A DNA stretch of 64,000 bases from Escherichia phage L27: sequence record LC473039.1. One strand, 5' to 3'. Of this stretch, positions 1,989-40,184 are shown piece by piece (the stretch's first letter is position 1; every line of letters starts with the position of its first letter). The notes under the pieces are model-generated. The model had not been told where the DNA came from. It was given only the letters and a program-made list of their open reading frames with translations, and made no database searches. The position numbers and the translations under genes were made by a program.

Positions 1989-3034
1989 GTGGTGAGAGAA
2001 AAACTTTTGACTCACTTAATAAACACTACCCAAAAATCTTTGAGCTTTATAAACAACAAAAAGCACAAGATTGGTCAGAAGATGAGTTCCCTTTTGAACA
2101 ATCACGTCTTGATTTTGAGAGTGTCCCAGCATCAATGTCAGGTGTAATGCTTGAGATTCTTAAGTGGCAGTGGGAAGCAGATACTCAAGTTGCTAAGAGC
2201 TTGGCATTTGCCTTTGCACCGTTTATCTCTGATGACATCTATGCAACTGCAATTATGAAGCAGTCTGAGATTGAAAACCTACATGCTCTTACTTACTCAG
2301 AGATTGTAAGACAATGTATTAAAAACCCTGAAACAATCTTAGATGAGATTAACCAGAATGTTGCTGTGCAAGACCGATTAAAAACTGTGAATCGTGTTCT
2401 TGAAGAATTACTGGATGAAGGTATAAACTATCGTCTGAGTTATGTGCGTGATTCACTTCTGGACAAAGACCCTTTATACTTCCATAAAGTGATTCTGAAA
2501 GGGCTGTTTGCAGTGACTGCACTTGAAGGTATATCTTTTATGGCATCCTTTGCATGTACTTTTGCACTTGATGCTCAAGATAAATTTCAGGGTATTGCTC
2601 AAGCGGTACAGAAAATTATGCTTGACGAAATCCTTCACACTAAAATTGATATTGAAGTTTTAAAAGAAACTTTAAGGGATGATGAGTGGCAGAAAGCTTT
2701 TCAACAAATTCTTCCAGAGATTAAAGTAATCTTAGATGAAGTAGTTGAAAGTGAAGAGAAATGGTCGTATTATATCTTCTCCGAAGGACGTGCTGTAGTT
2801 GGTTTAAATACAAAGCTTCTTCATGAGTGGGTTTACTATAATGCTGCCCCACTGTATGATATGTTTGGCATTCAAAGAGATTTTGTAGCTCCTAAAGAAC
2901 CACCTTTGAAGTACATGATTAAGAAGATGGAAATTGATAAAGAGCAGAATGCTAATCAGGAGCAACAGAACGGTGCGTACCTATTGAATACTGTTGTAGA
3001 TGATTTGAATAGTGGATTTTTAGAGGTTCCTTAA
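1961..3034 (+). CDS. nrdB: ribonucleotide reductase class I small subunit NrdB
   Basis: ATG at 1961 behind AAAGGAGAAA; ferritin-like motif LEGISFMASFA; synteny after nrdA. Confidence 0.85.
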   Translation: MVNQHPIFLGGERKTFDSLNKHYPKIFELYKQQKAQDWSEDEFPFEQSRLDFESVPASMSGVMLEILKWQWEADTQVAKSLAFAFAPFISDDIYATAIMKQSEIENLHALTYSEIVRQCIKNPETILDEINQNVAVQDRLKTVNRVLEELLDEGINYRLSYVRDSLLDKDPLYFHKVILKGLFAVTALEGISFMASFACTFALDAQDKFQGIAQAVQKIMLDEILHTKIDIEVLKETLRDDEWQKAFQQILPEIKVILDEVVESEEKWSYYIFSEGRAVVGLNTKLLHEWVYYNAAPLYDMFGIQRDFVAPKEPPLKYMIKKMEIDKEQNANQEQQNGAYLLNTVVDDLNSGFLEVP

Positions 3035-3276
3035 TGACTTATGTAATTTACTCCAAAACTGGATGCCCTCAGTGTGAAACTGCAAAGAATTTTGCAAAAG
3101 CTCGTGGTATTGACCACGTTGTGAGAATGTTAGGACAGGATTATGAGCTATCAGAACTAATGGATATTGCACAGATGCCAGTTCGTCAGATGCCATTCAT
3201 CATGAAAACTGATGGACAAAACCTAAAACCTGTTGGGACGCTACAGAATTTTATGGCAGAGGTGAATAATGCTTAA
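3034..3276 (+). CDS. glutaredoxin/NrdH-like redoxin (CPQC active site)
   Basis: 80 aa, N-terminal CPQC motif, start overlaps nrdB stop; RNR electron donor position. Confidence 0.7.
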   Translation: MTYVIYSKTGCPQCETAKNFAKARGIDHVVRMLGQDYELSELMDIAQMPVRQMPFIMKTDGQNLKPVGTLQNFMAEVNNA

Positions 3277-3475
3277 ACGCCTTTGGGAAGGTTTGGTTAT
3301 TGATGCACCAGTTATTGTAATTGGTATGCTTATTGCTAACCTATTTACTGACTTTAAACAAGGTTTGTTGTTTGGAGTCATGTTACTATGGGTTATATTT
3401 GAAATCCTAGAGATACAGTTAGGTATCACTGAAAAACTAAGAGAACTCTTTGCGAAGTTTTCTAAAAAGATTTAA
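3269..3475 (+). CDS. small membrane protein
   Basis: 68 aa, two hydrophobic helices; followed by terminator hairpin. Confidence 0.45.
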   Translation: MLKRLWEGLVIDAPVIVIGMLIANLFTDFKQGLLFGVMLLWVIFEILEIQLGITEKLRELFAKFSKKI

Positions 3476-5036: not shown

Positions 5037-5984
5037 TGTAGAGCATTTTTATCACCATACCATAACGAATATGGTGAAGAGTTTTATGTAGGTCGTGCAA
5101 ACATTGGTGCTGTATCTTTGAACTTACCAATGATTTACCAGTATTCTAAAGAGAATGGTTTAGATTTCTGGAAAGAGCTTGATAAGTACCTAGAGATGAT
5201 TCGTAGTTTCCACAAGAAACGCTACGAAATGATTGCTAATATGCCAGCAAGTTCTAACCCTCTTGCATTCACACAAGGTGGTCTGTACAAAGGAACTAAA
5301 AAATCCACCGACAAGGTTGGTTGGGATATCTTGAAGTCCTTCACAGCTTCTTTTGGGGTTACTGCGCTTGATGAGTTATCTGTTCTTACTGAGGGTAAAC
5401 GACTTCATGAAGTTGGAAGCTCTAGTTTTGCATACGATGTTCTGGCATACATTAACATGAAAACTGAAGAGTTTAAGAATGAGGATGGCTTCTTGTATGC
5501 GGTATATGGTACTCCAGCAGAGTCATTGTGTGGAACTCAGCTAAAACAGTTCAGAGATATGTTTGGTGTTATCAAAGGCGTTTCTGACAAGGAATACTTT
5601 ACAAACAGTTTCCATATGAATGTTGCAGCAAACATCTCACCATTTGAGAAGCAGGACTTAGAAGAACCATTCTTCCATATCTGTAGAGGTGGCAGAATCC
5701 AGTATGTAAGGGTAGCTAACCCAGAAAACTTAACAGCACTTAAAAGTTGTATTACAAGAGGGATGTTGAAGGGTTTCTATCAGGGGCTTAACTTTGACTT
5801 AGCAATCTGTGAACATTGTGGTAACAGACCAAAGGCTGACGTTGAAGAATGTGAGGTTTGCCATTCACATGATATCTCTGTGATTAACAGGGTGTGTGGG
5901 TACTTGTCATTCACAAAAATTAAAGGCCAGTCTCGAATGAATGACGCTAAGATGGCAGAAATTAAGGATAGAGTTTCTATGTAA
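5037..5984 (+). CDS. nrdD: anaerobic ribonucleotide reductase NrdD, exon 2 (glycyl-radical domain)
   Basis: In-frame open from 5016; C-terminal glycyl radical motif RVCGYL and Zn ribbon CEHCGN...CEVCHS. Confidence 0.8.
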   Translation, partial: CRAFLSPYHNEYGEEFYVGRANIGAVSLNLPMIYQYSKENGLDFWKELDKYLEMIRSFHKKRYEMIANMPASSNPLAFTQGGLYKGTKKSTDKVGWDILKSFTASFGVTALDELSVLTEGKRLHEVGSSSFAYDVLAYINMKTEEFKNEDGFLYAVYGTPAESLCGTQLKQFRDMFGVIKGVSDKEYFTNSFHMNVAANISPFEKQDLEEPFFHICRGGRIQYVRVANPENLTALKSCITRGMLKGFYQGLNFDLAICEHCGNRPKADVEECEVCHSHDISVINRVCGYLSFTKIKGQSRMNDAKMAEIKDRVSM

Positions 5985-5994
5985 AACTTGACAA

Positions 5995-6035
5995 GGTGAT
6001 GTGGGTCTTGATAGGCTTACATCACCTTTTTATTT
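5995..6035 (+). terminator. Rho-independent terminator after nrdD
   Basis: GGTGATGT...ACATCACC stem followed by TTTTTATTT. Confidence 0.6.
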
Positions 6036-6046
6036 GGAGTTACATT

Positions 6047-6382
6047 ATGGACTTGTGGCTTTATGTAGCAGTTTGTGGGATTGTATGTCTGATAATCTTA
6101 TTTATTCTTGGAGTAATGCGATTTAGAGACATCATACAGTCAGATTTTTTGCCTGAGTTTGCCATGATAGTTGGGGTTATTGCCCTTTGTGTCTTGGCAG
6201 TGTTCTATTCATACAAAACTGTGATATGGATGGAGGCAAACAATTGTGTAAAAACTCATCAGCATCGTGAGGTTACTCATTTTGTGAGTGTACTTAGTGG
6301 TAGCACCACTATACTTGTCCCACAAACTTCTGTAGAATATCTTTACACATGTGATAATGGTAAAACTATATGGTGGAATTAA
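6047..6382 (+). CDS. hypothetical membrane protein
   Basis: ATG at 6047 behind GGAG; two predicted TM helices. Confidence 0.45.
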   Translation: MDLWLYVAVCGIVCLIILFILGVMRFRDIIQSDFLPEFAMIVGVIALCVLAVFYSYKTVIWMEANNCVKTHQHREVTHFVSVLSGSTTILVPQTSVEYLYTCDNGKTIWWN

Positions 6383-6384
6383 CA

Positions 6385-6585
6385 ATGACAACACTCTTAA
6401 AAGTATTGATACCCACACTACATATAGCAGTCTTCTTCTTTGGTGTTAGTGTTATGGTATGGGGATTTTCAGACCCACAATGGAGTTTCTCATATCATGG
6501 TCAGATGGACTTATGGTCATGCTTCAAACCATTTTTAGGGTTAGCTATAGCATTCAGTGCATTACCAACTAAGGTGAAATTATGA
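6385..6585 (+). CDS. hypothetical small membrane protein
   Basis: Hydrophobic 67 aa ORF, tightly packed with neighbours. Confidence 0.4.
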   Translation: MTTLLKVLIPTLHIAVFFFGVSVMVWGFSDPQWSFSYHGQMDLWSCFKPFLGLAIAFSALPTKVKL

Positions 6586-11242: not shown

Positions 11243-11578
11243 ATGAAAATCAAAGAGATGAACATCAACATTGTCTTAGAAGAACGTTGGGAGAACATCA
11301 AGAAGCCTGAAAATGGTCATAAGTTCCTCAACAAAATCTTAGTAGCAGCTAAAGAAGAACTGACTGGCAAGGTTGCAGCAGCAATCACAATAAAGGTCTG
11401 TGTAAAAGGTCTTCCAGACAATCACCAATTTGCACTTGACGAGTTTAAAGAGAGCTTCTACAATCCAAACAAACAGATGCTTGAAAGTAACTTTGCAGTA
11501 TCTACAAGTATCGTTCATGACAGAAGCTTTATCCTTTACAAAAATATGAGAGGTGAGTCATGCAAGCATATTGGATAG
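11243..11578 (+). CDS. hypothetical protein
   Basis: 111 aa ORF with RBS GGAGAAGA. Confidence 0.5.
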   Translation: MKIKEMNINIVLEERWENIKKPENGHKFLNKILVAAKEELTGKVAAAITIKVCVKGLPDNHQFALDEFKESFYNPNKQMLESNFAVSTSIVHDRSFILYKNMRGESCKHIG

Positions 11579-11736
11579 AAATTTTACTGTCACTTGGTAG
11601 TGTAGCAGTGTTCGTTTACCTTCTTTGCAAGTACTATGCAGAACACAAAAAATGTGACTTCTGTAATGGGGAAGGGTATACAAGAGCAGGTTGTTGCCCT
11701 ATGTGTGGCGGTTCTGGTAAAATGTTTAATAAGTAA
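11560..11736 (+). CDS. small membrane protein with CxxC-x11-CxxC zinc-ribbon tail (not in ORF track, 58 aa)
   Basis: ATG 11560 behind GAGGTGAG; N-terminal TM helix then CDFCNGEGYTRAGCCPMCGGSG. Confidence 0.4.
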   Translation: MQAYWIEILLSLGSVAVFVYLLCKYYAEHKKCDFCNGEGYTRAGCCPMCGGSGKMFNK

Positions 11737-11764: not shown

Positions 11765-14131
11765 ATGCGCATGGTAAATGACCACGCAGAAGTGATTAAG
11801 AGTTCAACTTCTTTGGAGACATCTCAAGCACAGATTACAATGACACCTGAAATGTTCAGTCTTCTGAGTTCTGGTGTATACACGTTTAAAGAGCGAGCAG
11901 TGATTCGTGAACTGTCATGTAACGCAGTAGATGCTCAGAAAGAAGCTGGAAAAGAGAACATCCCATTCCATGTGCATTTACCTACTCGTTTTGAGCCTTA
12001 CTTCGAAGTTCGTGATTTTGGAACTGGATTGACTCATGATAAAGTTATGAGTTTGTACCTAAACTACGGCGCTTCTACGAAGAATGACTCTAATGATTAC
12101 ATTGGTGCAATGGGTATCGGTTCAAAGTCACCGTTTGCAATTGCTCAGTCATTCACAGTGTCGAGCTACGTTGATGGTGTTGTTAATAAATACTCTGTTT
12201 ATCTTGAGAATGGTATACCTCAAGTAACTAAGCTGACAACTAACCCAACAAAAGAACCTAATGGTTTAGCTGTACGTGTGGCAGTTGCTGACCACCGTAT
12301 CTCAAAGTTCTTTGAAGAAGCTGGGAATGTGTACTCATACTTTGCTGTAAAACCAGAAAGCAATATTGTATATGATGACGTGTTAGCAGATATGAACGTC
12401 ATTGCTCGTGAAGAAGGTGTTTATGACGCTATGATTCACAAGCAAAGCTGGCGTTCTAGTGGCAACAGGACAGAGTTTAATGTGGTGATGGGCAATATTG
12501 CCTATCCAGTTAATATGGAGGCATTACTTGGTGATGATTTCTTCAAAGTGTTGCCAGAATTTTTCCGTAGGAGCGTAGACCTTGTAAACATCTACATGCC
12601 TATTGGTGCAGTTGCTATTGCAGCTTCTCGTGAAGCATTGCAGATGAATGATACGACAAAAAATGTTATCATCGAGGCTACCAAAAAGATAACTGAAGCA
12701 ATTACAAAGGATGTTATCAAGAAAGTTAATAGCCAACCTACACTCATGGATGCTGCACAGGCTTATGCAGAGCTACGTTTGAACTCACGAGAAATGTTTA
12801 ACGCTGTGTGTCCAAAGCTAGAGTGGGGAGGTGTCAAGCTTGACTCTTTGGAAGAAGAATTGCTAAACATTCGTCGTGGGATTATCTACGCAGAAGACGG
12901 CTCAGTCATTTATGAACGTGACGGTAAAGGTAATATTAAGGTTGATAGGAACGGAAACAACATCCCTAAAGTAGATTATCTTTATAACCCAGTTGCTTAT
13001 GTCAAGTTCAACTCTTTAGAGAGTAAGATTCGTGCAACAGCACTTTCCTACACTCAAGAGGCAAGTATGTTCAATATCTTTGGCGCAATGCGTAAAAGCC
13101 AAATTGAACAGTTTTTGTTCGTGATTAATGACCGTCGCAATAAAAACGGTACTGAGAAGACTGTAGGCCGCAATCAGATTCTGCGTGGTGCATGTCGAGA
13201 CTACGCTAACGAGTCAAGTCTGTTCCACAGATACAATGGTATTGTGTTTGTATTCTCAACTGAAAAAGAGTTGGATGATTTAATCAATCTACACAAACTT
13301 GATAAAAGCTTGTTAAAGATTGTGAAGATGTCTGATAAGGAACATCACTATCAGCGTAAAGAAGCTGTAAGAGGTGTTGTAAAACTCTGGAAAGCTGTTC
13401 CAGCAGAAGGTGTAGCTTCCTATAAAGAGGTTTCAGAGGACTTTGATACAATTGAAGAACCTCAGCTTTACATTAAGGCAGTTGGTGACACAGTTGATGG
13501 CGAATGTTTTTGCTCATCTCCAGAAGATGTAGCCAAGTCAGTTGCTAATGTTACAGGGAAGACAGTCTATGTTTTCCGAAAAGCAAATTGGAAAAAGATA
13601 CCAGAAGACTGGATTGAAGTAGATGAGAAACTCTTGAACGACAGCTTAACTGATGTTCATTGGATTAATCATAACAGGTATATGACACGTATCTGTATGC
13701 GTGGTGTCCTTAACCTTACAAGCTGTTGGATTATTACCAGAAACTTTACGTTCAATAACAGGAAGATTTCTGATGGTTATTGCTATTCACGGGACACAAA
13801 CAAAACTATCTTCCTAGAAGGTAATGAAGATGCTGTTGAGGCAATGTTCGGTAAAATCCAATACGTTGCTGCACAATTTGCATACACTTACACTATTAGT
13901 GTGTTGCAAGATTTGAAAAGGTGTCTTGATAATGATACAAAGCTTTACAAGAAAATTAAGAAAGCTGGTGACCGTATGTTTATTAAGGTGACAAACTACT
14001 TCTCAAAAAGAAAACAAGAAAACTTCTTGCTTTCTCATTTAGATTGGAATAAAGTGTCACCCATTGAAGTGAGTAAGTTCTTGGGCTTTGATGTGAAGTG
14101 TGTTCCAGAAGGGACTACAATTTACGATTAA
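11765..14131 (+). CDS. rIIA: rIIA-like protein (GHKL-type ATPase fold N-terminus)
   Basis: N-terminal Bergerat-fold boxes (RELSCNAVDA, RDFGTGL, GAMGIGSKS) as in T4 rIIA; 788 aa; followed by rIIB-sized gene. Confidence 0.75.
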   Translation: MRMVNDHAEVIKSSTSLETSQAQITMTPEMFSLLSSGVYTFKERAVIRELSCNAVDAQKEAGKENIPFHVHLPTRFEPYFEVRDFGTGLTHDKVMSLYLNYGASTKNDSNDYIGAMGIGSKSPFAIAQSFTVSSYVDGVVNKYSVYLENGIPQVTKLTTNPTKEPNGLAVRVAVADHRISKFFEEAGNVYSYFAVKPESNIVYDDVLADMNVIAREEGVYDAMIHKQSWRSSGNRTEFNVVMGNIAYPVNMEALLGDDFFKVLPEFFRRSVDLVNIYMPIGAVAIAASREALQMNDTTKNVIIEATKKITEAITKDVIKKVNSQPTLMDAAQAYAELRLNSREMFNAVCPKLEWGGVKLDSLEEELLNIRRGIIYAEDGSVIYERDGKGNIKVDRNGNNIPKVDYLYNPVAYVKFNSLESKIRATALSYTQEASMFNIFGAMRKSQIEQFLFVINDRRNKNGTEKTVGRNQILRGACRDYANESSLFHRYNGIVFVFSTEKELDDLINLHKLDKSLLKIVKMSDKEHHYQRKEAVRGVVKLWKAVPAEGVASYKEVSEDFDTIEEPQLYIKAVGDTVDGECFCSSPEDVAKSVANVTGKTVYVFRKANWKKIPEDWIEVDEKLLNDSLTDVHWINHNRYMTRICMRGVLNLTSCWIITRNFTFNNRKISDGYCYSRDTNKTIFLEGNEDAVEAMFGKIQYVAAQFAYTYTISVLQDLKRCLDNDTKLYKKIKKAGDRMFIKVTNYFSKRKQENFLLSHLDWNKVSPIEVSKFLGFDVKCVPEGTTIYD

Positions 14132-14210: not shown

Positions 14211-15320
14211 ATGACTACTAAAACTAAAGCACAGATTGACGCAGAAATTTACAAACTGGTTAAAGAAGGTAAGCTGACTAAAACAGCTATTGCACAGAAA
14301 TTTAACACCTCAACCCGTTCAGTCGGTCGTGCTGTAGAGCGTCATGAAGCAACCTTAAAAGGTAAGAAAAAGGCAACTTCTACACCAGCTACGAAGACTT
14401 TGAAACAAGTTGCTAAGACCTTTAAAAAGAAAGCTAACAAGCCAGTTAAAAAGGCTGTTAACGAGGATGTACAGAAAGCTCCGGTAAATAAACTGCATGA
14501 AGCTATGCAGAATGGCAACCAGATTGAGTACATGATTACTGGCGACTCTGTTATCATGACTTTCGGTGCAGATTCTGAAATCGTTGAATCTACCCATCCG
14601 AACTACAAAGAAATCGTGATGGCTGTTGTATCTGGTGAGTATAAGAAAGCTTTCGAACTGATGAACATTCGTAAGTCTATCGAAAACTTCACTCAGGGTG
14701 CTATCACCATCAAAGGTGACAAGTTATTCTACGGTGCTGTTGAGATGCGTTCTACTCTGGTTGACCGTATTCTTCACATGATGAAGACTGGAGATAAAGG
14801 TTTTGAACGACTTGTGATGTTCTTCGAAAAACCGATGGAAAACCCATCTAAAGACTCTGTAGAACAACTTTGGGGCTTCGTATCCCACCTTGATGTTGAA
14901 ATCGACGAAGAAGGTTACATCATTGGTTGGAAGAAAGTATCTACTCGTGAAGGCAAGTTGGTTGATTCTCATACCTACAGAGTACCCAATGATTTAGGTA
15001 ACGTTGTAGAAATGCCACGTTGGATGGTTGATAATAACCGTAACGTGACTTGCTCTCAAGGTCTTCACGTTGGTGCTTGGGATTATGTTCGTTACTTCTC
15101 AGGTGATACAATTCTGAAGGTTCGTGTCCATCCACGAGATGTTGTATCTGTTCCAACTGATTACAACGATATGAAGATGCGTTCGTCTCGTTATGAAGTT
15201 GCAGCAATCGTTGATAACCAACGTAAAGTGCTGAAAGAATGGGATGGCAAGACTGAAGCTTTGCATGTCATCGTTGGCACTGCTGGAGAACTTATCTCCC
15301 AACGTAAACGTGAAATCTAA
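14211..15320 (+). CDS. rIIB: rIIB-like protein
   Basis: Assigned by size and position immediately after rIIA; no motif recognised with certainty. Confidence 0.55.
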   Translation: MTTKTKAQIDAEIYKLVKEGKLTKTAIAQKFNTSTRSVGRAVERHEATLKGKKKATSTPATKTLKQVAKTFKKKANKPVKKAVNEDVQKAPVNKLHEAMQNGNQIEYMITGDSVIMTFGADSEIVESTHPNYKEIVMAVVSGEYKKAFELMNIRKSIENFTQGAITIKGDKLFYGAVEMRSTLVDRILHMMKTGDKGFERLVMFFEKPMENPSKDSVEQLWGFVSHLDVEIDEEGYIIGWKKVSTREGKLVDSHTYRVPNDLGNVVEMPRWMVDNNRNVTCSQGLHVGAWDYVRYFSGDTILKVRVHPRDVVSVPTDYNDMKMRSSRYEVAAIVDNQRKVLKEWDGKTEALHVIVGTAGELISQRKREI

Positions 15321-15335
15321 TAAGTAATTTCTTAA

Positions 15336-15362
15336 AAGGCTGCTTCGGCGGCCTTTTTTATT
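15336..15362 (+). terminator. Rho-independent terminator
   Basis: AGGCTGC-TTCG-GCGGCCT + TTTTTTATTT. Confidence 0.7.
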
Positions 15363-15420: not shown

Positions 15421-15969
15421 ATGAAGAAATTGATTCTAGGTTTGTGCTTAATGTTTACAGCACACTTATCTTATGCAGTTGACTGCCCAGAGCTATCAAT
15501 TAGCCAAAAAGTAAACATGTTAAAAGCTTACCAGTATGGTGAGAATAACATGGGTAAGGGTTGGGGTATCACTCTAGCTGCTATAGCCTTACAAGAGTCA
15601 GAGTTAGGTCTGAAGGTAGAGAATAAAAAGACACACGACTATGGTATTTTCCAGAATCACTTGAAGACTGTTGTAAAGCGTAACAAAATTAGCCCTAATG
15701 TGGCTAAAAAGAAACTCTTAAAAGACTTTGACTATGCTGCGAAGGAAACGCACAAAGAGCTTGAGTTTTGGACAAAGGTACATGGTCAGCCAAAGTCAAA
15801 GAAGACTTTACAAAAAGTTTTAGCATCATATAATGCTGGGTATTCGTACAGAATCCCTAAAGCTAAGAAATATTCTCAAGATGTCTATAACAACATGAAA
15901 GTTATTGCTCAATGTGAATTTGCAACAAACATTTCTAAGGTAAACCATGAAAAAATTAAGAAAGTTTGA
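15421..15969 (+). CDS. secreted lytic transglycosylase (SLT domain)
   Basis: Signal peptide MKKLILGLCLMFTAHLSYA; SLT motifs ALQESELG (catalytic E-S), YGIFQ, LASYNAGYS. Confidence 0.65.
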   Translation: MKKLILGLCLMFTAHLSYAVDCPELSISQKVNMLKAYQYGENNMGKGWGITLAAIALQESELGLKVENKKTHDYGIFQNHLKTVVKRNKISPNVAKKKLLKDFDYAAKETHKELEFWTKVHGQPKSKKTLQKVLASYNAGYSYRIPKAKKYSQDVYNNMKVIAQCEFATNISKVNHEKIKKV

Positions 15970-16642
15970 TGAAGTACTGTGTCATGCTTATGACTTACAC
16001 CCTCATGAGTTAGGTCTTGATTCCGGTGTATGGACTCCAGAACAGTGTAGAGATTTTGAAGACACAGCAAGAGAAGTTGTATGTTCACTTGAAGAGTTCC
16101 ACACATCAGAGCCAATTGTGAATGTTGTAGATAAAGAGACTGGACAGATTATAGGTGTAAGGCGTGATAGTTTAGTCATAGTCAATAAAGACCTTGTAGA
16201 AAAAGGTAACCTCATCTTAGCAGATATTGATGGCGTTCTTACAAATTTTAATCACGAAGATTGCTCAACGGAATTGACTGACGGTTCATTTTCACAGTAC
16301 ACTAATCTTCTTGACTCTGTAAGAGCAAAACCAACGTATGTTTTCAATATCATTGATGCAATTGCTAATCATGCTGCCGTTGGACTCTTGACAGCGAGAG
16401 GCGAATCTCAGAGAATACCTACTGAGATGTTTTTAAGGCATAACACAGAGCATGACTACATGCTTTTTATGCGTGGTTTTGGGACTAACTCTATAAGTGC
16501 AGAAAGTTTGAAAGTGAGGATGATTCAGTCTTGCATTCTGCCTTACTTTAATATAGTATGTTTTATAGAAGACACAGAGAAGAATGCGCAGAAGGTGAAC
16601 AGAATCCTTCCACACATCAAAACCATGTTAGTTAAACATTGA
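15947..16642 (+). CDS. HAD-superfamily hydrolase-like protein (possible nucleotidase)
   Basis: Motif ILADIDGVL (DxD), GLLTARGES, FIEDTEKN. Confidence 0.45.
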   Translation: MKKLRKFDEVLCHAYDLHPHELGLDSGVWTPEQCRDFEDTAREVVCSLEEFHTSEPIVNVVDKETGQIIGVRRDSLVIVNKDLVEKGNLILADIDGVLTNFNHEDCSTELTDGSFSQYTNLLDSVRAKPTYVFNIIDAIANHAAVGLLTARGESQRIPTEMFLRHNTEHDYMLFMRGFGTNSISAESLKVRMIQSCILPYFNIVCFIEDTEKNAQKVNRILPHIKTMLVKH

Positions 16643-16652: not shown

Positions 16653-17117
16653 ATGAACAATATCATTACGGTAGCACTGGACGTTACGGCAAACAAATCT
16701 GAAGTAGTTCGCAACATTATCAAGAGCAACTTTGAGGGTAAAATCTTCCGTGCTGTCAATGTAAAAGCAGACGGTAACATCCGGGAGTATCGTGCTCTCT
16801 TAAATGTTAAGAAACACGTAAAAGGTTCTGGCTCAACGACAGCACACAAAGAAAACCTGATGACTATCTATGATATGGGGATGGCTTCAGAATTAGGTGC
16901 TGAAGGTATCGTTAAAGAAGGTGCTCCGTATCGCTCTTTCAATCTGGAAACTGCTCTTATGCTTTCCTTTACAAGTGGTTCTAAAACAACTACTTATCTC
17001 TTTACTGATGCTGCAACGGTATCTGCTATCAAGGATAGCACTGTCAAAGCTGGGGTAGCTGCTGCTGCAAAAGCTTCTTCGATGGCTGCAAATGTCCTTG
17101 CTAAAGTCCTCGGTTAA
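16653..17117 (+). CDS. hypothetical protein
   Basis: 154 aa ORF, followed by terminator. Confidence 0.5.
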   Translation: MNNIITVALDVTANKSEVVRNIIKSNFEGKIFRAVNVKADGNIREYRALLNVKKHVKGSGSTTAHKENLMTIYDMGMASELGAEGIVKEGAPYRSFNLETALMLSFTSGSKTTTYLFTDAATVSAIKDSTVKAGVAAAAKASSMAANVLAKVLG

Positions 17118-17128: not shown

Positions 17129-17152
17129 AGGCTCCTTCGGGAGCCTTTTTCA
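17129..17152 (+). terminator. Rho-independent terminator (GGCTCC-TTCG-GGAGCC + T run)
   Basis: Perfect hairpin + TTTTT. Confidence 0.7.
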
Positions 17153-17169
17153 TTTCAGGAGATTGTTAA

Positions 17170-17517
17170 ATGACATTTAAAGAGTTCTGTCAAGCTACTT
17201 TCATAATTGTTTTCTTAGTTGGGGCAGGTGTCTGGGGAGGATACTCTTACAGAGACTATCAAGTTGCTGAAACTGAGCTAAACAATCAAAAGCTCATAAG
17301 TGTTGCTAAAGATGCTTATCAGGAAGGATTAGTCACACTGAGCACCAATTACAAAAATGATTTGAAAGATGTGCTTGCTAAGAATAAGCATACAAAAGAG
17401 GTACTAACATATGAAAAAACTAAGCCAGAGTTTTATAATGTTTGTGTTACTGATAACTATGTCAGGGTGTTCAACGAACAAAGTGAACAGTACATTCAAA
17501 AACTCCCAAGTAAGTGA
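17170..17517 (+). CDS. candidate i-spanin (Rz-like, N-terminal TM anchor)
   Basis: Type II membrane topology: N-terminal TM helix then soluble helical domain; o-spanin-like lipoprotein ORF overlaps its 3-prime end. Confidence 0.4.
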   Translation: MTFKEFCQATFIIVFLVGAGVWGGYSYRDYQVAETELNNQKLISVAKDAYQEGLVTLSTNYKNDLKDVLAKNKHTKEVLTYEKTKPEFYNVCVTDNYVRVFNEQSEQYIQKLPSK

Positions 17518-17680
17518 GAGTGATAAGTACACTCAAGAAGAATCACGGTATATCATCAAAGGCAACACAGGCAGCGATGTAGCAGCAGCCCTTGAGTTCT
17601 ATCGTGACGGCTTTTACCAGTGCACAATCAAAGCTAATAACCTTATTGATATGATTTTATTAGGGAATAAGCAGCAATGA
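17411..17680 (+). CDS. candidate o-spanin (Rz1-like outer-membrane lipoprotein)
   Basis: Lipoprotein signal with lipobox ITMSGC; starts inside the previous gene in +1 frame; RBS AAGAGG. Confidence 0.4.
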   Translation: MKKLSQSFIMFVLLITMSGCSTNKVNSTFKNSQVSESDKYTQEESRYIIKGNTGSDVAAALEFYRDGFYQCTIKANNLIDMILLGNKQQ

Positions 17681-17946
17681 CAGAGAATGAAGATACTTTT
17701 TACGTAGAAGGGTACTTACTGTTGCCACGACCAAAAGAAACTTATATGCGAATTGATTTCTTACCAACCATTATGGATAATGTTATGTGTCATATCTTTA
17801 TGCAAGGTGTCACAGCACAGCTTAAGTATGTTGGTAAAGAGTGCAAAATAAAGGTTGACACTCATCCAGAAATCAAAGAGAATCACTACACATGGTTCTT
17901 ACCAGATTCTAAAGAAATCTTAGCAGTTCTTAAAACGAGGAAGTAA
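17677..17946 (+). CDS. hypothetical protein
   Basis: 89 aa ORF, translationally coupled. Confidence 0.5.
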   Translation: MTENEDTFYVEGYLLLPRPKETYMRIDFLPTIMDNVMCHIFMQGVTAQLKYVGKECKIKVDTHPEIKENHYTWFLPDSKEILAVLKTRK

Positions 17947-31908: not shown

Positions 31909-32373
31909 TTACTTTGGATATACGCTGTCAAGATAAATGTCAGCTTCCATTCTACGTCTGTTTTTCAGGCCGTTTGAAGTGACCTTCTTACCTTTGACTG
32001 TAACCTTGTTCCACCACTGCATAGCTTCTGCACAACCGACCTTATTACCATCGTTGTGGCGCTTGATAAATGTAGAGTCCTGCATAGCTGTGATGCCAAT
32101 GTTGTATGTTTCACTTACCAGTGCATCAAACTCATTCTGAGAAGTTGGAACCTTGACGGCTTTGTTCACTGCTGCAACGAACTTCTCAACATCTGCGAGA
32201 AGATACTGTTCAGCTTGTTCAGCGGTAATCTTCATACCCATCTTAACAGGCTTCCCACCAATACGAATTGTCCCATACCCAATTGTGGGGATTCCAGCAG
32301 AATCTTCGTAAGCCTCTAGCTTAAGACCTTCAAAGAACTTAATAGCTTCTAAACCTTTTCTTGAGAGTTGCAT
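31909..32373 (-). CDS. endolysin, GH24 lysozyme (muramidase)
   Basis: N-terminal EGxxLxAYxDxxGxPTIGYG lysozyme signature (FEGLKLEAYEDSAGIPTIGYGT). Confidence 0.75.
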   Translation of the reverse strand: MQLSRKGLEAIKFFEGLKLEAYEDSAGIPTIGYGTIRIGGKPVKMGMKITAEQAEQYLLADVEKFVAAVNKAVKVPTSQNEFDALVSETYNIGITAMQDSTFIKRHNDGNKVGCAEAMQWWNKVTVKGKKVTSNGLKNRRRMEADIYLDSVYPK

Positions 32374-33005
32374 TAGCCCTCCCCTGCTGGGTTAACTGTA
32401 ACTGTTGCTGCATTAGATGTTACAGAACCACCTACACCAGTAACTACACAAGTGTAGCTTCCTGCATCTGCTTGTAGAGCACCAGACTTGCTATAGGTAG
32501 CATTTGTAGCTGAAGGGATGTCAGAGCCATCTTTCTTCCACTGATAACCTGTTGCACCTGTTGCAATAACGCTTAGGGTAAGTGTGCCACCTTCATTTAC
32601 TGTTTGATTGGTTGGTTGCTGGGTGATTACTGGTGGCTTGATAGCATCCTTCAACTTAGCATTCAACATTGAGAATGGTTTAACTCTTGCCAGCCATTCA
32701 CAATAAACTGTATCAACGTCTTTACCATTGATAATTGCATATTGTAAGTCCATGAAGAAGTCAGACGTTCTCATTTGAGCACCAACGCTGTAAAGCAACT
32801 CATCACTAAATGGAACTTTGTAGTCTGGTTTGTAGTCAAACTTCTTAACTTCTGCAATATCAGCTTCAGGCCAATACGAACTATAGGTAAGTGGTAAAAT
32901 AGCCTCTTGATATGTTCTAAAATCATATCTCTTACCAGCCTTTACATTCGCAACGAAGCCCTTCACAAACTCTTTGAAGTCTGGGTAAGTCTTTGCTTTA
33001 ATCAT
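32373..33005 (-). CDS. hypothetical protein with C-terminal Ig-like domain; N-terminal domain paralogous to next gene
   Basis: C-terminal NQTVNEGGTLTLSVIATGATGYQWKK...GSYTCVVTG resembles Ig-like repeat; N-terminal ~110 aa aligns with 33002..33373 product. Confidence 0.55.
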   Translation of the reverse strand: MIKAKTYPDFKEFVKGFVANVKAGKRYDFRTYQEAILPLTYSSYWPEADIAEVKKFDYKPDYKVPFSDELLYSVGAQMRTSDFFMDLQYAIINGKDVDTVYCEWLARVKPFSMLNAKLKDAIKPPVITQQPTNQTVNEGGTLTLSVIATGATGYQWKKDGSDIPSATNATYSKSGALQADAGSYTCVVTGVGGSVTSNAATVTVNPAGEG

Positions 33006-33373
33006 TTCTTTTTAGCCTCTAAATGTGCGTTTAGTCTAAAATAACCTTTGTGATGCGGAGATACATCACCAACAACAATACCTTTAACCTTATAACCTTT
33101 ACCAATTACATACTGGATATCCATAAGGAATCTTCCAAGACCAACAATATGGAACATTGGGTATAATAGATTCTCAGAATCTGGAATATTGATTTCAGGT
33201 TTGTAGGTACACTGTTCGCTTGTTGGTGTAATATCTTCTTCAGGCCATTTGCTGAGTCTCCATGTCAAAGGTGTTGGGATAACATCATTAAGGTTGTACC
33301 TTTCACCATTTTTCACGGAATTGATATAGGATTGTAGGAAGCAATAAAAGTCTTTTGCACTCTTAGCTTTCAT
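33002..33373 (-). CDS. hypothetical protein, paralog of N-terminal domain of 32373..33005
   Basis: Shared blocks KAK..DF...V..G.RY, WPE.DI, YKP.....D.E.LLY, F.MD.QY.I..G, LNA.L. Confidence 0.5.
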   Translation of the reverse strand: MKAKSAKDFYCFLQSYINSVKNGERYNLNDVIPTPLTWRLSKWPEEDITPTSEQCTYKPEINIPDSENLLYPMFHIVGLGRFLMDIQYVIGKGYKVKGIVVGDVSPHHKGYFRLNAHLEAKKK

Positions 33374-36663: not shown

Positions 36664-36740
36664 CTCTGTTTAGCTCAGCTTGGTAGAGCGTTCCGTTTGG
36701 GGCGGTAAGGCCGGAGGTTCAAGTCCTCCAACAGAGACCA
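36664..36740 (+). tRNA. tRNA-Pro (anticodon TGG)
   Basis: Manual fold: acceptor CTCTGTT/AACAGAG, D-arm GCTC/GAGC, T-arm GGAGG-TTCAAGT-CCTCC, CCA encoded. Confidence 0.75.
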
Positions 36741-36747
36741 AATTAAT

Positions 36748-36825
36748 GTTCCAGTAGACAAAATGGTATAGTCACCACTCTTTCAAAGTGGATATTTGAG
36801 GGTTCAAATCCCTTCTGGAACGCCA
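36748..36825 (+). tRNA. tRNA-Glu (anticodon TTC)
   Basis: Acceptor GTTCCAG/CTGGAAC, anticodon arm CCACT-CTTTCAA-AGTGG, T-loop TTCAAAT, CCA. Confidence 0.75.
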
Positions 36826-36916
36826 GTTTTGACAGAAGACCAATTACAGCAAACTTAATCTTATTCATCTGAAGGTAAATCGGACAAAGAAGAGACTTGG
36901 TCTGGTCATTAAGAAT

Positions 36917-36993
36917 TGCGGGTATAGAGAAAGGGCGTCTCACATGTCTCATTAGCATGGTATCGGCAGGTTCGACTCCTGCACCCGCCTCCA
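36917..36993 (+). tRNA. tRNA with CAT anticodon (Met / fMet / Ile-lysidine)
   Basis: Anticodon arm CATGT-CTCATTA-GCATG, T-arm GCAGG-TTCGACT-CCTGC; possible 1:72 mismatch; CCA. Confidence 0.65.
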
Positions 36994-37077
36994 AATTTAC
37001 AGAAGACCGTTTACAGCAAAATTGAATGAAATTTTTAGCGGAAAAATTGAAAGATACGGTCTGGTAATACTAAACAT

Positions 37078-37151
37078 GGTTAGGAAGCACATAAGGTATG
37101 TGCGGTCGCCTGTTAAGCGAATGGCACAGGGTTCGAATCCCTGACTAACCG
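37078..37151 (+). tRNA. tRNA-Asn (anticodon GTT)
   Basis: D-arm GCAC/GTGC, anticodon loop CTGTTAA, T-arm CAGGG-TTCGAAT-CCCTG. Confidence 0.7.
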
Positions 37152-37163
37152 CAAAATTTAAAT

Positions 37164-37251
37164 GTGTCGTTATCCCGTAGATGGTAGCGGTGGGGACTGT
37201 AAATCCCTTGTCATTGAGACTCGGTAGGTTCGACTCCTACACGGCACACCA
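37164..37251 (+). tRNA. tRNA-Tyr (anticodon GTA), long variable arm
   Basis: Acceptor GTGTCGT/ACGGCAC, anticodon loop CTGTAAA, T-arm GTAGG-TTCGACT-CCTAC, CCA. Confidence 0.75.
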
Positions 37252-37273
37252 ACACTTAGCGAGATACTTAGTT

Positions 37274-37702
37274 ATGAGAGATGAAGTATACAAATCACAA
37301 CTTGGTATGAGTTTGGGAACTGCACAAAACAGACTAGTAAAAGATTTGCTATTCGATTTTATATGTAAGACAAATCAAAATAGATGTTTTCAGTGCGGAA
37401 AAGAAATGACTAGGGATGATTTCTCTATCGAGCATAAGATTCCGTGGAGACATAGTGAGAATGCAAAAGAGCTTTTCTTTTCACTAGATAATATTTCTTA
37501 TAGTCATCTTAAATGTAACATGAAAGCAGCAAGACCAGCACAGATAAGTGAAAGAAAACATAAAACAATTAAACACGGAACTGCGTATAGTTATTTTAAA
37601 GGCTGTAGATGCGATGAGTGTAGGTTGGCTAAGAATGCTGAGAGTAGAAGAAACTATAGTCCAGAAAGACGTAGGAAGAAGTATCTAAGAAATGGCACAT
37701 GA
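37274..37702 (+). CDS. HNH homing endonuclease (tRNA-cluster embedded)
   Basis: HNH core SIEHKIPW...SHLKCN; C-terminal YFKGCRCDECR; ORF-track start 37181 overlaps tRNA-Tyr, ATG 37274 used. Confidence 0.7.
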   Translation: MRDEVYKSQLGMSLGTAQNRLVKDLLFDFICKTNQNRCFQCGKEMTRDDFSIEHKIPWRHSENAKELFFSLDNISYSHLKCNMKAARPAQISERKHKTIKHGTAYSYFKGCRCDECRLAKNAESRRNYSPERRRKKYLRNGT

Positions 37703-37705
37703 ATT

Positions 37706-37781
37706 TGGGGTATTAGTTTAGACGGGTAAAATACGGGATTGTCTCTCCTGAGCCGCGAGTTCGATTCTCGCATACCTCGCC
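37706..37781 (+). tRNA. tRNA, anticodon GTC (Asp) or TGT (Thr) depending on fold
   Basis: Acceptor GGGGTAT/ATACCTC, T-arm GCGAG-TTCGATT-CTCGC, CCA; anticodon loop ambiguous. Confidence 0.6.
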
Positions 37782-38212
37782 AATTTTGAGAGGGCTATTT
37801 AGCCCCTCCCTTAAAGGGTTCTTACGAGTATCTTTTAAAGGAGCAGAAGACCAAATACAGCAAGAACGTATGAAAATTTCAAGCCAATTTAATTTTGAAA
37901 AATTTAAAACTTGGTCTGGCTCAACAAATTTACAGAAGACCGTTTACAGCAAAACTTAAACAATCTATTTCTCGGTAAAGAAAAGGCGAAGGTTCGATTC
38001 CTTCACTCGGCAGATGTCGAGTTGGTGTAATGGTAGCACTTAAGATGATAAACAACGGTCTGGTAATTATCTTTGTAGATAAGTTATTAAGCTTACCTGT
38101 GAGTATGCGACCACAAAGGGTGAAAGGGTAAATTCTAGATTTAAACCCAACAAGGCACATCGCTACAGACCTTAAGCAAGTCTGGGTAGCTTATCTACAA
38201 AGATAATTTAAT

Positions 38213-38288
38213 GGAAGTGTAGCAGAATGGTGATGCGGTAGACTTTTAATCTGACAGGCGATGGGTTCGAATCCCTCCACTTCTACCA
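38213..38288 (+). tRNA. tRNA-Lys (anticodon TTT), atypical T-stem
   Basis: Acceptor GGAAGTG/CACTTCT, anticodon loop CTTTTAA, T-loop TTCGAAT, CCA. Confidence 0.55.
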
Positions 38289-38292
38289 AAAT

Positions 38293-38369
38293 GGTTCAGT
38301 CGCAGATAAGGTAATGCAAGGGTCTCATAAGCCCTATGAATGTGGGTTCGATTCCCATCTGAACCTCCA
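38293..38369 (+). tRNA. second tRNA with CAT anticodon (Met/Ile2)
   Basis: Acceptor GGTTCAG/CTGAACC, anticodon arm AGGGT-CTCATAA-GCCCT, T-loop TTCGATT, CCA. Confidence 0.7.
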
Positions 38370-38377
38370 ATTTATAG

Positions 38378-38872
38378 GTGATACTTATGATTTGTGCCAA
38401 CAAAGATTGCAGAAATGAAGCCGTTAAAGGTGGAAAATTTTGCTCACGCTCTTGTTCTGCAAAAGTGAACAACAAGAAACACCCAAAGAGAAGTCAGGAA
38501 GGCTCTTGCCATTCATGCGGAAAGGTAACGCCAAAAGCGAGAAAATACTGTGACGAATGTATTGCAGGTGGAGTCATGAAAAAACATAAGACCCATCATG
38601 AAAAAAGCAAAGCCAAATCACTGCACGTTAAAAAGTCTCGTGACAGACTGAAGAAGGCTTTAGTTGATTACAAGGGTGGTTGTTGTTCAATTTGTGGTTA
38701 CAATAGGTGCATAAAGGCTCTAGAGTTTCACCACTTAGACCCTAAGACAAAAGACTTCACAGTAAGTAAAAAACACTACTCACTGGCTACAATGCAGTCT
38801 GAAGTTGATAAGTGTGTCTTGCTTTGTGCAAATTGCCACAGAGAAGTACACGAAGGGGTAACAATGCTGTGA
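38378..38872 (+). CDS. HNH homing endonuclease (zinc-binding)
   Basis: Multiple CxxC pairs and HNH motif EFHHLDPKTKD...CANCHREVH; RBS AGGTGA. Confidence 0.7.
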   Translation: MILMICANKDCRNEAVKGGKFCSRSCSAKVNNKKHPKRSQEGSCHSCGKVTPKARKYCDECIAGGVMKKHKTHHEKSKAKSLHVKKSRDRLKKALVDYKGGCCSICGYNRCIKALEFHHLDPKTKDFTVSKKHYSLATMQSEVDKCVLLCANCHREVHEGVTML

Positions 38873-38941
38873 AAGCACATATGGATGTGCATTCGGCTGA
38901 TAACCGAAAGGCAGAAGGTTCAAATCCTTCTCACAGTACCA
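38866..38941 (+). tRNA. tRNA-Ile (anticodon GAT)
   Basis: Start overlaps HNH stop codon; D-arm GCAC/GTGC, anticodon arm TTCGG-CTGATAA-CCGAA, T-arm GAAGG-TTCAAAT-CCTTC, CCA. Confidence 0.75.
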
Positions 38942-38956
38942 ATTTCAATAAAGTTG

Positions 38957-38985
38957 TTGACATTGAGATGTGACTACTTTATAGT
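38957..38985 (+). promoter_or_regulatory. strong sigma70 consensus promoter (TTGACA-N17-TATAGT) inside tRNA cluster
   Basis: GTTGTTGACATTGAGATGTGACTACTTTATAGTAACC; ~200-nt untranslated leader before next tRNA. Confidence 0.6.
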
Positions 38986-39189
38986 AACCTTAGTTTTCGT
39001 TGCGTAGCGTCTATTTTGCAAATTTAAAATAAATGCAAACGACAATGTTTTTCTGGCAGTAGCTTGATAGGCTAAACACCAGTGAGGTCTTCCAATCCCT
39101 CATCAAAGAATTTGGCGTACTCGCCCACGGTATGATTAATAAGGTGGGCATCTTTAAGGGCTTTCTAAGAGAGTCTTTAAAGATAATTA

Positions 39190-39271
39190 CGGGGCGTATC
39201 TCAGCGGTCTTCTAAACCGCCGTTAACCGAGTAAGTGGAGTATGCGGGTTCGAGTCCTGCCGCCTCGACCA
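39190..39271 (+). tRNA. atypical tRNA-like gene (possible tRNA-Arg, anticodon TCT; D-arm not resolvable)
   Basis: Good acceptor CGGGGCG/CGCCTCG, T-arm GCGGG-TTCGAGT-CCTGC and CCA; perfect stem-loop GCGGT-CTTCTAA-ACCGC but spacing non-canonical. Confidence 0.4.
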
Positions 39272-39414
39272 ATTTAGTTAGCAGATTACTTAGACGACCT
39301 AAGCGGGTCTTCCTGTAGGGAGGTGGTCTGTATCTCATGTTTTCCAGAACATGTAAATAATCTGAGAAGGGGCTTTACAGTGTTGAGATAATACGGTAAG
39401 CTTCGAATTATAGT

Positions 39415-39497
39415 ATGGGACGATGTTAAGACTCTAAGGCATGAGCAACGGCTTCCAACACCGTTTCAAAGGGGTTCAACTCCTCCGTCCCATGCCA
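39415..39497 (+). tRNA. tRNA-Trp (anticodon CCA) candidate with enlarged D region
   Basis: Acceptor ATGGGAC/GTCCCAT perfect, anticodon region ACGG-CTTCCAACA-CCGT resembles Trp arm, T-loop TTCAACT, CCA. Confidence 0.5.
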
Positions 39498-39510
39498 AAG
39501 TCTTATTAGG

Positions 39511-39600
39511 GGTAGGTAGCGGCTAATGGTAGCCAAACAGTCTTGAAAACTGTTGCCACTGTAGAGATACGGTGAGGGTTCGACTCCTTTACTTACCGCC
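39511..39600 (+). tRNA. tRNA-Ser (anticodon TGA), long variable arm
   Basis: Anticodon arm ACAGT-CTTGAAA-ACTGT, variable arm ~20 nt, T-loop TTCGACT. Confidence 0.7.
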
Positions 39601-39854
39601 TAATAAGATTTTACACCGTCCATGCTTGCTCGCATTTTCGGTTTATCCCTCGTGTATTGTCGTACACTGATAAAGCACCTAGTAGGTGTCACGGAGAAGA
39701 GATAATATCAAGCTCTCCAAAGGTTCTAGTCACCGGATTAAACAAGACTATGCAAAGACCAAATTAGGTCTTTTTAGAGGGCTTCTAAGGTTATTACAGC
39801 TTGTTGTGGAACCTTGTTGCTTAGGTTCTTAGAAGTTCTCTAAAAAGATTTAAT

Positions 39855-39932
39855 GGGAGATTGACGGTAATTGGTAAACCTATCTCGCTTAGAACGAGAT
39901 GTTTGAGGGTTCGAATCCCTTGTCTCCTACCA
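39855..39932 (+). tRNA. tRNA with anticodon TAG (Leu) but short variable arm
   Basis: Anticodon arm TCTCG-CTTAGAA-CGAGA, T-arm GAGGG-TTCGAAT-CCCTT, CCA. Confidence 0.55.
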
Positions 39933-39939
39933 AATTAAT

Positions 39940-40015
39940 GCAGGTGTAGCAAAATGGTTATGCGGCTGACTCTTAATCAGTAAGACGATGGGTTCAATTC
40001 CCTCCACCTGTACCA
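39940..40015 (+). tRNA. tRNA-Lys (anticodon CTT), atypical T-stem shared with Lys-TTT
   Basis: Acceptor GCAGGTG/CACCTGT, anticodon arm GCTGA-CTCTTAA-TCAGT, CCA. Confidence 0.55.
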
Positions 40016-40021
40016 GACATT

Positions 40022-40097
40022 GGGGATGTAGTTTACATGGTTAAAACATAAGTTTTGCAAACTTAAGTACAGGGTTCAATTCCCTGCTTCTCCACCA
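40022..40097 (+). tRNA. tRNA-Ala (anticodon TGC)
   Basis: D-arm GTTT/AAAC, anticodon arm TAAGT-TTTGCAA-ACTTA, T-arm CAGGG-TTCAATT-CCCTG, CCA. Confidence 0.65.
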
Positions 40098-40103
40098 ATT
40101 AGT

Positions 40104-40178: not shown

Positions 40179-40184
40179 AATAAA

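Follow-up and report, generated by a model that had tools for sequence, protein, structure and literature searches.

An overlapped gene pair predicted to encode the two-component spanin of a Felix O1-like phage, located apart from the endolysin gene

Two overlapping open reading frames (ORFs) at 17170-17680 of the window (the whole 64-kb stretch of phage DNA that was analysed) raise the question whether they encode the third lysis function of the phage, a spanin, despite their position well away from the endolysin gene. A preliminary description of this DNA had interpreted them as a spanin pair resembling Rz and Rz1 of phage lambda. When held against the criteria that define the spanin class (Summer, 2007; Kongari, 2018), this reading was supported, in that it fits every sequence criterion tested. 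The two ORFs, arranged in the manner called 'overlapped', are very probably the predicted two-component spanin of a Felix O1-like myophage. The features of the locus, with the upstream gene designated i-spanin and the downstream gene o-spanin according to their predicted functions, are the following:

17157-17161, + strand: Shine-Dalgarno sequence AGGAG of the i-spanin gene, 8 nt before its ATG, conserved across relatives
17170-17517, + strand: predicted i-spanin gene, 115 aa, ATG start (ORF, hydropathy, phrog_1152, SpaninDB)
17194-17241, + strand: predicted transmembrane codons of the i-spanin, approximately residues 9-24 (hydropathy peak 1.75)
17396-17402, + strand: Shine-Dalgarno sequence AAGAGGT of the o-spanin gene, within the i-spanin frame, 8 nt (GAGG 9 nt) before its ATG
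17411-17680, + strand: predicted o-spanin gene, 89-aa precursor, ATG start, +1 frame relative to the i-spanin gene
17411-17517, + strand: dual-coding overlap of 107 nt, in which frame 0 encodes the i-spanin C-terminal motif and frame +1 the signal peptide and lipobox of the o-spanin
17459-17470, + strand: codons of the o-spanin lipobox, M17-S18-G19-C20; the aligned sequences have M or I at position -3

A 5-kb query around the pair matched 258 phage records, and 212 of them covered 80% or more of it. Almost all of these belong to Felixounavirus, the Felix O1-like myophages. Salmonella phage Meda and Escherichia phages ESCO49 and Alf5 were the best nucleotide matches (95-96% identity), and over the spanin locus itself, nucleotide identity to many Felixounavirus genomes was 95-99%. 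These matches identify the window as a Felixounavirus genome. Salmonella, Escherichia, Shigella, and Citrobacter are the hosts of its nearest relatives, and a Gram-negative host is what would be expected of a phage that carries spanins.

Much of this interpretation was already on record. 'Felix01, FO1a, UAB_phi87' are listed among the overlapped two-component spanins by Kongari et al. (2018; PMC6139136). The Felix01 i-spanin sequence in SpaninDB is identical to the product of 17170-17517, and the 107-bp overlap is likewise the same. SpaninDB places the Felix01 genes at 5330-5678 and 5571-5841, with a Shine-Dalgarno context, tttttcatttcAGGAGattgttaa, that is the same as in the window (PMC6139136), and gives the same Shine-Dalgarno sequence for the Felix01 i-spanin gene (Kongari et al., 2018; PMC6139136). 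GenBank records of Meda, Mushroom, Moogle, the GEC phages, the BPS17 phages, and others label the genes i-spanin and o-spanin; in Meda these are Meda_126 and Meda_125, respectively, with the record note 'identified by ISP/OSP tool'. In other Felixounavirus records in GenBank, the o-spanin ORF is called hypothetical or is left out. That the lysis genes of Felix O1-like phages are scattered has also been published, among others in the paper on Meda. The pair, its spanin interpretation, and its separation from the endolysin gene are already known and catalogued.

Hydropathy analysis of the product of 17170-17517 confirmed the N-terminal transmembrane anchor that had been described for it. The profile contained a single hydrophobic segment, located at the N-terminus (peak at residues 6-24, FCQATFIIVFLVGAGVWGG; Kyte-Doolittle 19-residue mean 1.75), and none elsewhere, as is required of a type-II membrane protein. 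The predicted layout consists of a short cytoplasmic N-terminus (with Cys7), one transmembrane segment, and a mainly helical periplasmic domain with Cys92. The conserved C-terminal motif reads EKTKPxFxNxCxTDxYVRxFNE. SpaninDB treats residues 28-115 as periplasmic (Kongari, 2018; PMC6139136) and, for the Felix01 i-spanin, gives approximately 66% helix in the periplasmic domain and zero predicted coiled-coil segments (PMC6139136). An AF2 monomer model of the i-spanin was all-helical, at low confidence (pLDDT 62.6).

The second ORF starts 241 nt into the first and therefore lies in the +1 frame. Its description as an overlapping lipoprotein gene with a lipobox and a ribosome-binding site of its own was borne out at 17411-17680, where M-S-G-C20 and AAGAGGT were found. 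The N-terminus of its product, MKKLSQSFIMFVLLITMSGC-S, has the composition of a lipoprotein signal (MKKLSQSFIMFVLLIT-MSGC20-S), with a basic n-region (two lysines), an uncharged hydrophobic core, the lipobox, and Ser at position +2. A lipobox cysteine without Asp at +2 is the signal expected of an outer-membrane lipoprotein. The predicted mature o-spanin would be a 70-aa outer-membrane lipoprotein that begins at Cys20 and contains one further cysteine (Cys71) and zero prolines; its conserved C-terminal motif is EFYRDGxYxCxIKANNLIDMILLGN. For the Felix01 o-spanin, SpaninDB gives 20% helix and 16% strand (PMC6139136). In an AF2 monomer model of the window's o-spanin, again of low confidence (pLDDT 54.8), the lipobox was followed by a disordered linker, and the C-terminal part formed a helix.

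Several GenBank records leave the second ORF without annotation or call it 'hypothetical', and AT-rich phage genomes hold many spurious short ORFs. The +1 frame might accordingly be open by chance and untranslated, with the 115-aa membrane protein as the only functional product. A lipoprotein filter of our own design was applied to all ATG, GTG, and TTG ORFs of 50-250 aa in the six frames of the 64-kb window. To pass, a product needed K or R among its first 8 residues and 12 uncharged residues ahead of the lipobox; the lipobox had to have the form [ILMFTV][^REKD][GAS]C, with the Cys located at positions 15-30 and any residue except Asp at +2. The o-spanin ORF was the only match in the window, whereas 30 random sequences of the same first-order composition yielded a mean of 0.2 matches.

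Conservation was analysed in an alignment of 32 sequences, comprising the window and 31 related loci from GenBank and IMG/VR, down to approximately 78% nucleotide identity. Both ORFs were open in 32/32 sequences, with both ATGs, the stops, and the cores of the ribosome-binding sites kept. The o-spanin ribosome-binding site AAAGAGGT, the lipobox Cys20, i-spanin Cys92, and o-spanin Cys71 were likewise invariant (32/32). Cys92 and Cys71 provide the periplasmic cysteines that are typical of the class, at least one of which is present in one partner in 507 of 528 spanin systems (Kongari, 2018; PMC6139136).

Mean pairwise nucleotide diversity at the first, second, and third codon positions was 0.076/0.054/0.220 in the part that encodes only the i-spanin, and 0.081/0.052/0.326, counted in the o-spanin frame, in the part that encodes only the o-spanin (17518-17676). 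In the overlap, diversity was 0.04-0.06 at all three positions. This is the signature expected of dual-coding DNA under purifying selection on both frames. The rarity of matches to the lipoprotein filter, the conservation in 32 sequences, and the distribution of diversity over codon positions together indicate that both ORFs are real genes. The ORF also recurs, at approximately 30% protein identity, in five further phage lineages (see below). A chance origin of the +1 frame is therefore effectively refuted and retains virtually no probability.

The i-spanin gene precedes the o-spanin gene on the same strand, and the two overlap, which is a gene arrangement known for spanins. Of the 'embedded/overlapped Rz/Rz1 architecture' previously attributed to the pair, the overlap was retained and the embedding was not, since the o-spanin ORF runs 163 nt beyond the i-spanin stop. 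The likeness to Rz/Rz1 held only in part as well. In a Pfam search, neither protein matched lambda Rz (PF03245) or Rz1 (PF06085) at E≤0.1, which rules out membership of the lambda Rz/Rz1 family. The i-spanin did match the PHROG profile phrog_1152, annotated 'Rz-like spanin' (E 1.1e-41; residues 1-115 on profile positions 2-124 of 127). For the o-spanin, the matches were phrog_4180 (unnamed; E 9e-51) and, weakly, phrog_456 'Rz-like spanin' (E 3e-4). As sequence kinship and Pfam matches are lacking, the pair is assigned to a sequence family of its own (phrog_1152 and its partner) and is, by predicted function, an analogue of lambda Rz/Rz1 and not a sequence relative.

Searches of wider scope differed in yield. 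Neither protein gave a significant match among solved structures, and word-indexed protein searches returned close relatives only. A profile built from the i-spanin alignment retrieved only 10 clusters at E≤1e-3 from 1.84 billion representative proteins, and thus gained little over tblastn against phages. With each of the two proteins as query, tblastn identified homologues outside Felixounavirus at approximately 27-36% identity, in Kolesnikvirus phiEa104 (another member of the Ounavirinae), in Kuravirus podophages (SU10, NJ01, and others), and in the small myophage Yersinia vB_YenM_324, Klebsiella phage e270.1, and Proteus phage Isfahan. The i-spanins of SU10, phiEa104, vB_YenM_324, e270.1, and Isfahan are 24-34% identical to that of the window and have the motif EK.KPxF.N.C.TD.Y..FNE in common with it.

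At each of these five distant loci (5/5), the 3' end of the i-spanin gene is overlapped by a +1-frame ORF whose product has a signal peptide and a lipobox, followed at +2 by Ser or Thr. Such a lipoprotein ORF was thus found in 6/6 lineages examined, never with Asp at +2. The mature parts of the distant o-spanins have a C-terminal motif in common with that of the window and differ from it in their two to four periplasmic cysteines, as compared with one. Approximately 70 nt of the overlap are 78-82% identical to the distant phages, whose spanins are otherwise only approximately 30% identical. This identity across phage families is attributed to the double duty of the DNA, which encodes the i-spanin C-terminal motif and the o-spanin signal peptide and lipobox at the same time.

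Holin and endolysin genes immediately precede the pair in the phages of Yersinia, Klebsiella, and Proteus. The holins of these cassettes match phrog_175, 24402, and 198, and holins and endolysins alike are of three different families. The i-spanins of the Klebsiella and Proteus cassettes match phrog_1152, and that of the Yersinia phage is 32% identical to the window protein (BLASTP, E 1e-12). A conserved pair that adjoins interchangeable holin and endolysin modules is expected to supply the third lysis function. The cassette context of homologues in three unrelated phages therefore supports a lysis role, as predicted from sequence, for the pair in the window. In the Ounavirinae and Kuravirus (phiEa104, SU10), the pair is located outside any such cassette, as it is in the window, where its surroundings are the following:

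11765-14131: rIIA
14211-15320: rIIB
15421-15969: secreted SLT-like protein, 182 aa (signal peptide and E-S, GIFQ, and YNAG motifs in the translation)
15947-16642: gene annotated as polynucleotide kinase in relatives
16653-17117: ORF, 154 aa, directly before the terminator and the spanin pair
17129-17151, + strand: terminator-like hairpin AGGCTCC-TTCG-GGAGCCT (17129-17146) followed by TTTTT, which terminates the preceding gene and is separated from the i-spanin ATG by 18 nt
17677-17946, + strand: downstream gene, 89 aa, phrog_4391 (unknown function), given as context and not part of the spanin
18691-19476: Macro-domain gene, in the same unit as the spanin genes
31909-32373, - strand: endolysin, a T4-lysozyme-type muramidase (Pfam Phage_lysozyme, E 9e-41; phrog_7 endolysin, E 8e-57)

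The gene order, rIIA, rIIB, SLT-like gene, 'polynucleotide kinase', 154-aa ORF, and then the i-/o-spanin pair directly behind a terminator, gives the region an early appearance. For the SLT gene named in the preliminary description, the Pfam match was weak (E 9e-4; 19.2 bits, under the cut-off of 21.3), but the translation showed a signal peptide and the three motifs. The endolysin gene reported at 31909 on the other strand was found there, 14.4 kb from the pair, so that the dispersal of lysis functions that had been pointed out agrees with published accounts of Felix O1-like phages. Spanin genes are usually, though not obligatorily, linked to those for holin and endolysin; such linkage is absent here. 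A search for the holin gave no PHROG holin match beside the endolysin gene or among the ORFs for membrane proteins in the window; the authors of the Meda paper likewise failed to identify one.

An early-type region beside rIIA/rIIB, with a gene for a secreted SLT-like protein and genes for nucleic-acid repair but without a nearby endolysin gene, could also suit a different envelope function. The pair might then be expressed early together with the rII genes and act in superinfection exclusion or receptor masking, as do T5 Llp and T4 Sp/Imm, instead of in the last step of lysis. Essentially all experimental work on spanins has used lambda Rz/Rz1 (Kongari, 2018; PMC6139136), and a literature search found no published functional test, and hence no published proof of spanin function, for the Felix O1-type family. 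Yet the T4 spanins are also encoded among early genes, and an obligatory type-II membrane partner and conserved periplasmic cysteines are hallmarks of spanins. Above all, homologous overlapped pairs directly follow holin and endolysin genes in three unrelated phages. Because of this lysis-cassette context of the homologues, an envelope role other than lysis has, in our estimate, a slim chance of being correct, and a spanin remains the preferred reading.

The terminator-like hairpin upstream of the i-spanin gene was kept in 30/32 sequences and is annotated as a terminator in phage Meda. No match to a sigma-70 promoter was found between the terminator at 17129 and the i-spanin ATG. A further terminator-like site follows only at 19506-19547, and the spanin genes therefore appear to head a unit that also includes four small ORFs and the Macro-domain gene. 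Linkage of the spanin genes to the Macro-domain gene was also observed in Kuravirus and Kolesnikvirus. The ATG of the first gene downstream overlaps the o-spanin stop (ATGA), in a GCAATGA context that was invariant in 32/32 sequences, and this gene is therefore probably translationally coupled to the o-spanin gene.

Placement in an early unit could mean more than displacement of a lysis module. The spanins might be made early and in attenuated amounts, or might have a second, pre-lysis role at the envelope, either in exclusion or in remodelling together with the SLT-like enzyme of 15421-15969. Separately, a family that is free of proline, has no predicted coiled coil, and carries one Cys per partner may break the outer membrane by a structural route other than that of Rz/Rz1. 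We give these extensions of the spanin reading an outside chance.

By analogy with lambda Rz/Rz1 and T4 PseT.3/PseT.2 (Kongari, 2018; and work by Berry, Rajaure, and Young), we infer the localisation of the two proteins, their complex formation and disulfide bonding, the disruption of the membrane, and the timing of expression. The 115-aa i-spanin would insert its N-terminal segment into the inner membrane, with the helical domain and C-terminus in the periplasm. The 89-aa o-spanin would be exported, lipidated on Cys20, cut by signal peptidase II, and sorted by the Lol system; an outer-membrane destination is predicted because the +2 residue is Ser and not Asp. The periplasmic domains would then bind each other via their C-terminal parts, forming a complex that spans the periplasm and is threaded through the peptidoglycan, and homotypic disulfides via i-spanin Cys92 and/or o-spanin Cys71 would probably stabilise it. 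Such complexes would build up harmlessly, held in check by intact peptidoglycan, until a holin and the lysozyme-type endolysin (31909-32373, - strand) degrade the wall. The complexes would then destroy the outer membrane, with fusion of the two membranes as the probable means. Since the wall itself would restrain the complex, spanin genes would need neither a location in a lysis cassette nor strict co-timing with the other lysis genes, as in T4.

A spanin by descent might nevertheless be dispensable in this phage, if another gene breaks the outer membrane or if shear suffices in the laboratory. In one comparative study, a Felixounavirus was reported with the i-spanin as its only annotated partner, which may reflect a gap in annotation. 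No disruptin-like or u-spanin candidate came to notice in the course of the analysis. In view of the strong purifying selection on both frames in every locus examined, we regard the prospect that the pair is dispensable as very slender.

Beyond correct annotation, the significance of these results is small. Many deposited Felixounavirus genomes still omit the o-spanin ORF or label it 'hypothetical', and the present analysis makes a clean evolutionary case for its status as a real gene. As Felix O1-like phages are used in biocontrol of Salmonella and E. coli, a full set of their lysis genes is useful.

The predicted design of the pair in the window is that of lambda Rz/Rz1: a type-II inner-membrane protein is paired with an outer-membrane lipoprotein whose gene uses the +1 frame of the same DNA, and periplasmic cysteines are present. 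The differences are in layout and composition. Lambda Rz1 is encoded entirely within Rz and is a proline-rich, unstructured protein, whereas the o-spanin gene here extends 163 nt beyond the i-spanin gene and its mature product has no proline. The absence of a predicted coiled coil from the Felix01 i-spanin in SpaninDB is a further difference from lambda Rz. The lambda spanin genes are part of a lysis cassette, whereas those of the window are outside one.

Homology with T4 PseT.3/PseT.2 was considered because a gene annotated as polynucleotide kinase lies in the vicinity of the pair, a situation also found in T4. The spanin system of phage Mushroom has been described as T4-like in the publication on that phage. 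BLASTP gave no alignment between T4 PseT.3 and the i-spanin of the window, and aligned T4 PseT.2 with the o-spanin over the signal peptide alone (E 0.034). In the absence of similarity beyond the signal peptide, homology with the T4 pair was rejected. The 'polynucleotide kinase' has merely a faint, HAD-phosphatase-like resemblance to T4 PseT, and the neighbourhood in common with T4 is therefore no evidence of common descent.

In organisation, T4 offers several parallels. The sizes of PseT.3 and PseT.2 (117 and 99 aa; RefSeq) are similar to those of the pair in the window (115 and 89 aa). Both phages have their spanin genes among early or nucleic-acid-metabolism genes near a polynucleotide-kinase gene, away from holin and endolysin, and both have o-spanins that are not proline-rich and are partly structured. 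The T4 genes are of the 'separated' type, with a stop/start overlap of 4 nt as compared with 107 nt here. Both essential cysteines of the T4 system are in the o-spanin and none is in the i-spanin (Kongari, 2018; PMC6139136), unlike the pair in the window, which has one periplasmic Cys per partner. T4 PseT.3/PseT.2 complements amber mutants of lambda Rz/Rz1 (Kongari, 2018; PMC6139136), and T4 is an accepted precedent for spanin genes located away from holin and endolysin genes (Kongari, 2018; PMC6139136, Figure 8 legend). The p014/p015 pair of Felix O1, which is the 'Felix01' entry of SpaninDB, is the same gene pair as that of the window in another isolate, with no substantive difference between the two.

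Over approximately 70 nt of the spanin overlap (window 17410-17477), the DNA was 78-82% identical to the equivalent overlap in Kuravirus phages and Yersinia phage vB_YenM_324, whereas the spanin proteins were elsewhere only about 30% identical. The conserved segment encodes both the C-terminal motif of the i-spanin and the signal peptide and lipobox of the o-spanin. Its high identity looks like the effect of a double coding constraint, with the DNA kept similar because these elements share it. In the records of Kuravirus SU10 (annotated o-spanin CDS at 3266-3439 of locus L032), vB_YenM_324 (3073-3261 of locus L033) and Kolesnikvirus phiEa104 (3148-3276 of locus L036), the o-spanin start was placed too far downstream, so that signal peptide and lipobox were lost from the annotated proteins. 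The complete lipoprotein ORFs, in the +1 frame, begin at approximately 3179 (SU10), approximately 2971-3025 (vB_YenM_324) and 3001 (phiEa104).

The spanin genes lie among the following features.

Features around the spanin genes (window coordinates)
15334-15357, + strand, strong terminator-like hairpin
15421-15969, + strand, SLT-like protein of 182 aa with signal peptide and lytic-transglycosylase motifs
15947-16642, + strand, gene called polynucleotide kinase in relatives (phrog_3970, 9e-133)
17129-17151, + strand, strong terminator-like hairpin
18691-19476, + strand, Macro-domain protein gene (Pfam PF01661, 1e-7)
19506-19547, + strand, strong terminator-like hairpin

The three hairpins delimit units comprising rIIB, SLT-PNK-orf, and the spanin genes through to the Macro-domain gene. 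The interval from the 17129 hairpin to the i-spanin ATG contained no sigma-70 promoter match, so the spanins may be expressed either through read-through of the terminator or from a promoter that was not recognised.

Roughly 1 kb separates the o-spanin gene from the Macro-domain gene further downstream. Linkage of spanin and Macro-domain genes is common to the window and Kuravirus, since a homologous gene directly follows the o-spanin gene in SU10 (L032 3439-3879; 25% protein identity, E 2e-9 in pairwise BLASTP). In phiEa104, a gene annotated as 'phosphatase' (L036 3284-4066) occupies the equivalent position after the o-spanin gene, and this position suggests the same linkage.

Upstream of the spanins, the SLT-like protein carries a Sec-type signal peptide (MKKLILGLCLMFTAHLSYA, predicted cleavage before VD) and all three lytic-transglycosylase motifs (LQESELG, GIFQ and SYNAGYSY). 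Its Pfam SLT match was slightly below the cut-off (E 9e-4; 19.2 versus 21.3 bits), and its PHROG match, phrog_600, is labelled 'unknown function'. Judged by sequence, it looks like a secreted, predicted muralytic enzyme of the early region, additional to the lysozyme-type endolysin. The product of the adjacent gene called polynucleotide kinase gave no match in a Pfam scan and nothing significant against T4 PseT by BLASTP; a faint likeness to PseT was confined to the HAD-phosphatase part (ADIDGVLT versus FDVDGTLA). In phage Meda, the counterpart of this gene is split in two.

No holin was identified in the endolysin neighbourhood (31909-33373, - strand), where adjacent genes matched tail/Hoc-like or unknown PHROGs, or in the whole window, in which six small membrane-protein ORFs matched solely families of unknown function.

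Small membrane-protein ORFs (window coordinates)
3269-3475
5999-6382
6370-6585
11560-11736
21627-21959
40530-41087

A holin was likewise not found in Meda (Meda paper); in contrast, a class-III holin is mentioned for Mushroom (Mushroom paper).

tRNA genes (window coordinates)
36664-42446, + strand, array of 24 tRNA genes with small ORFs between them

Such an array is typical of Felix O1-like phages.
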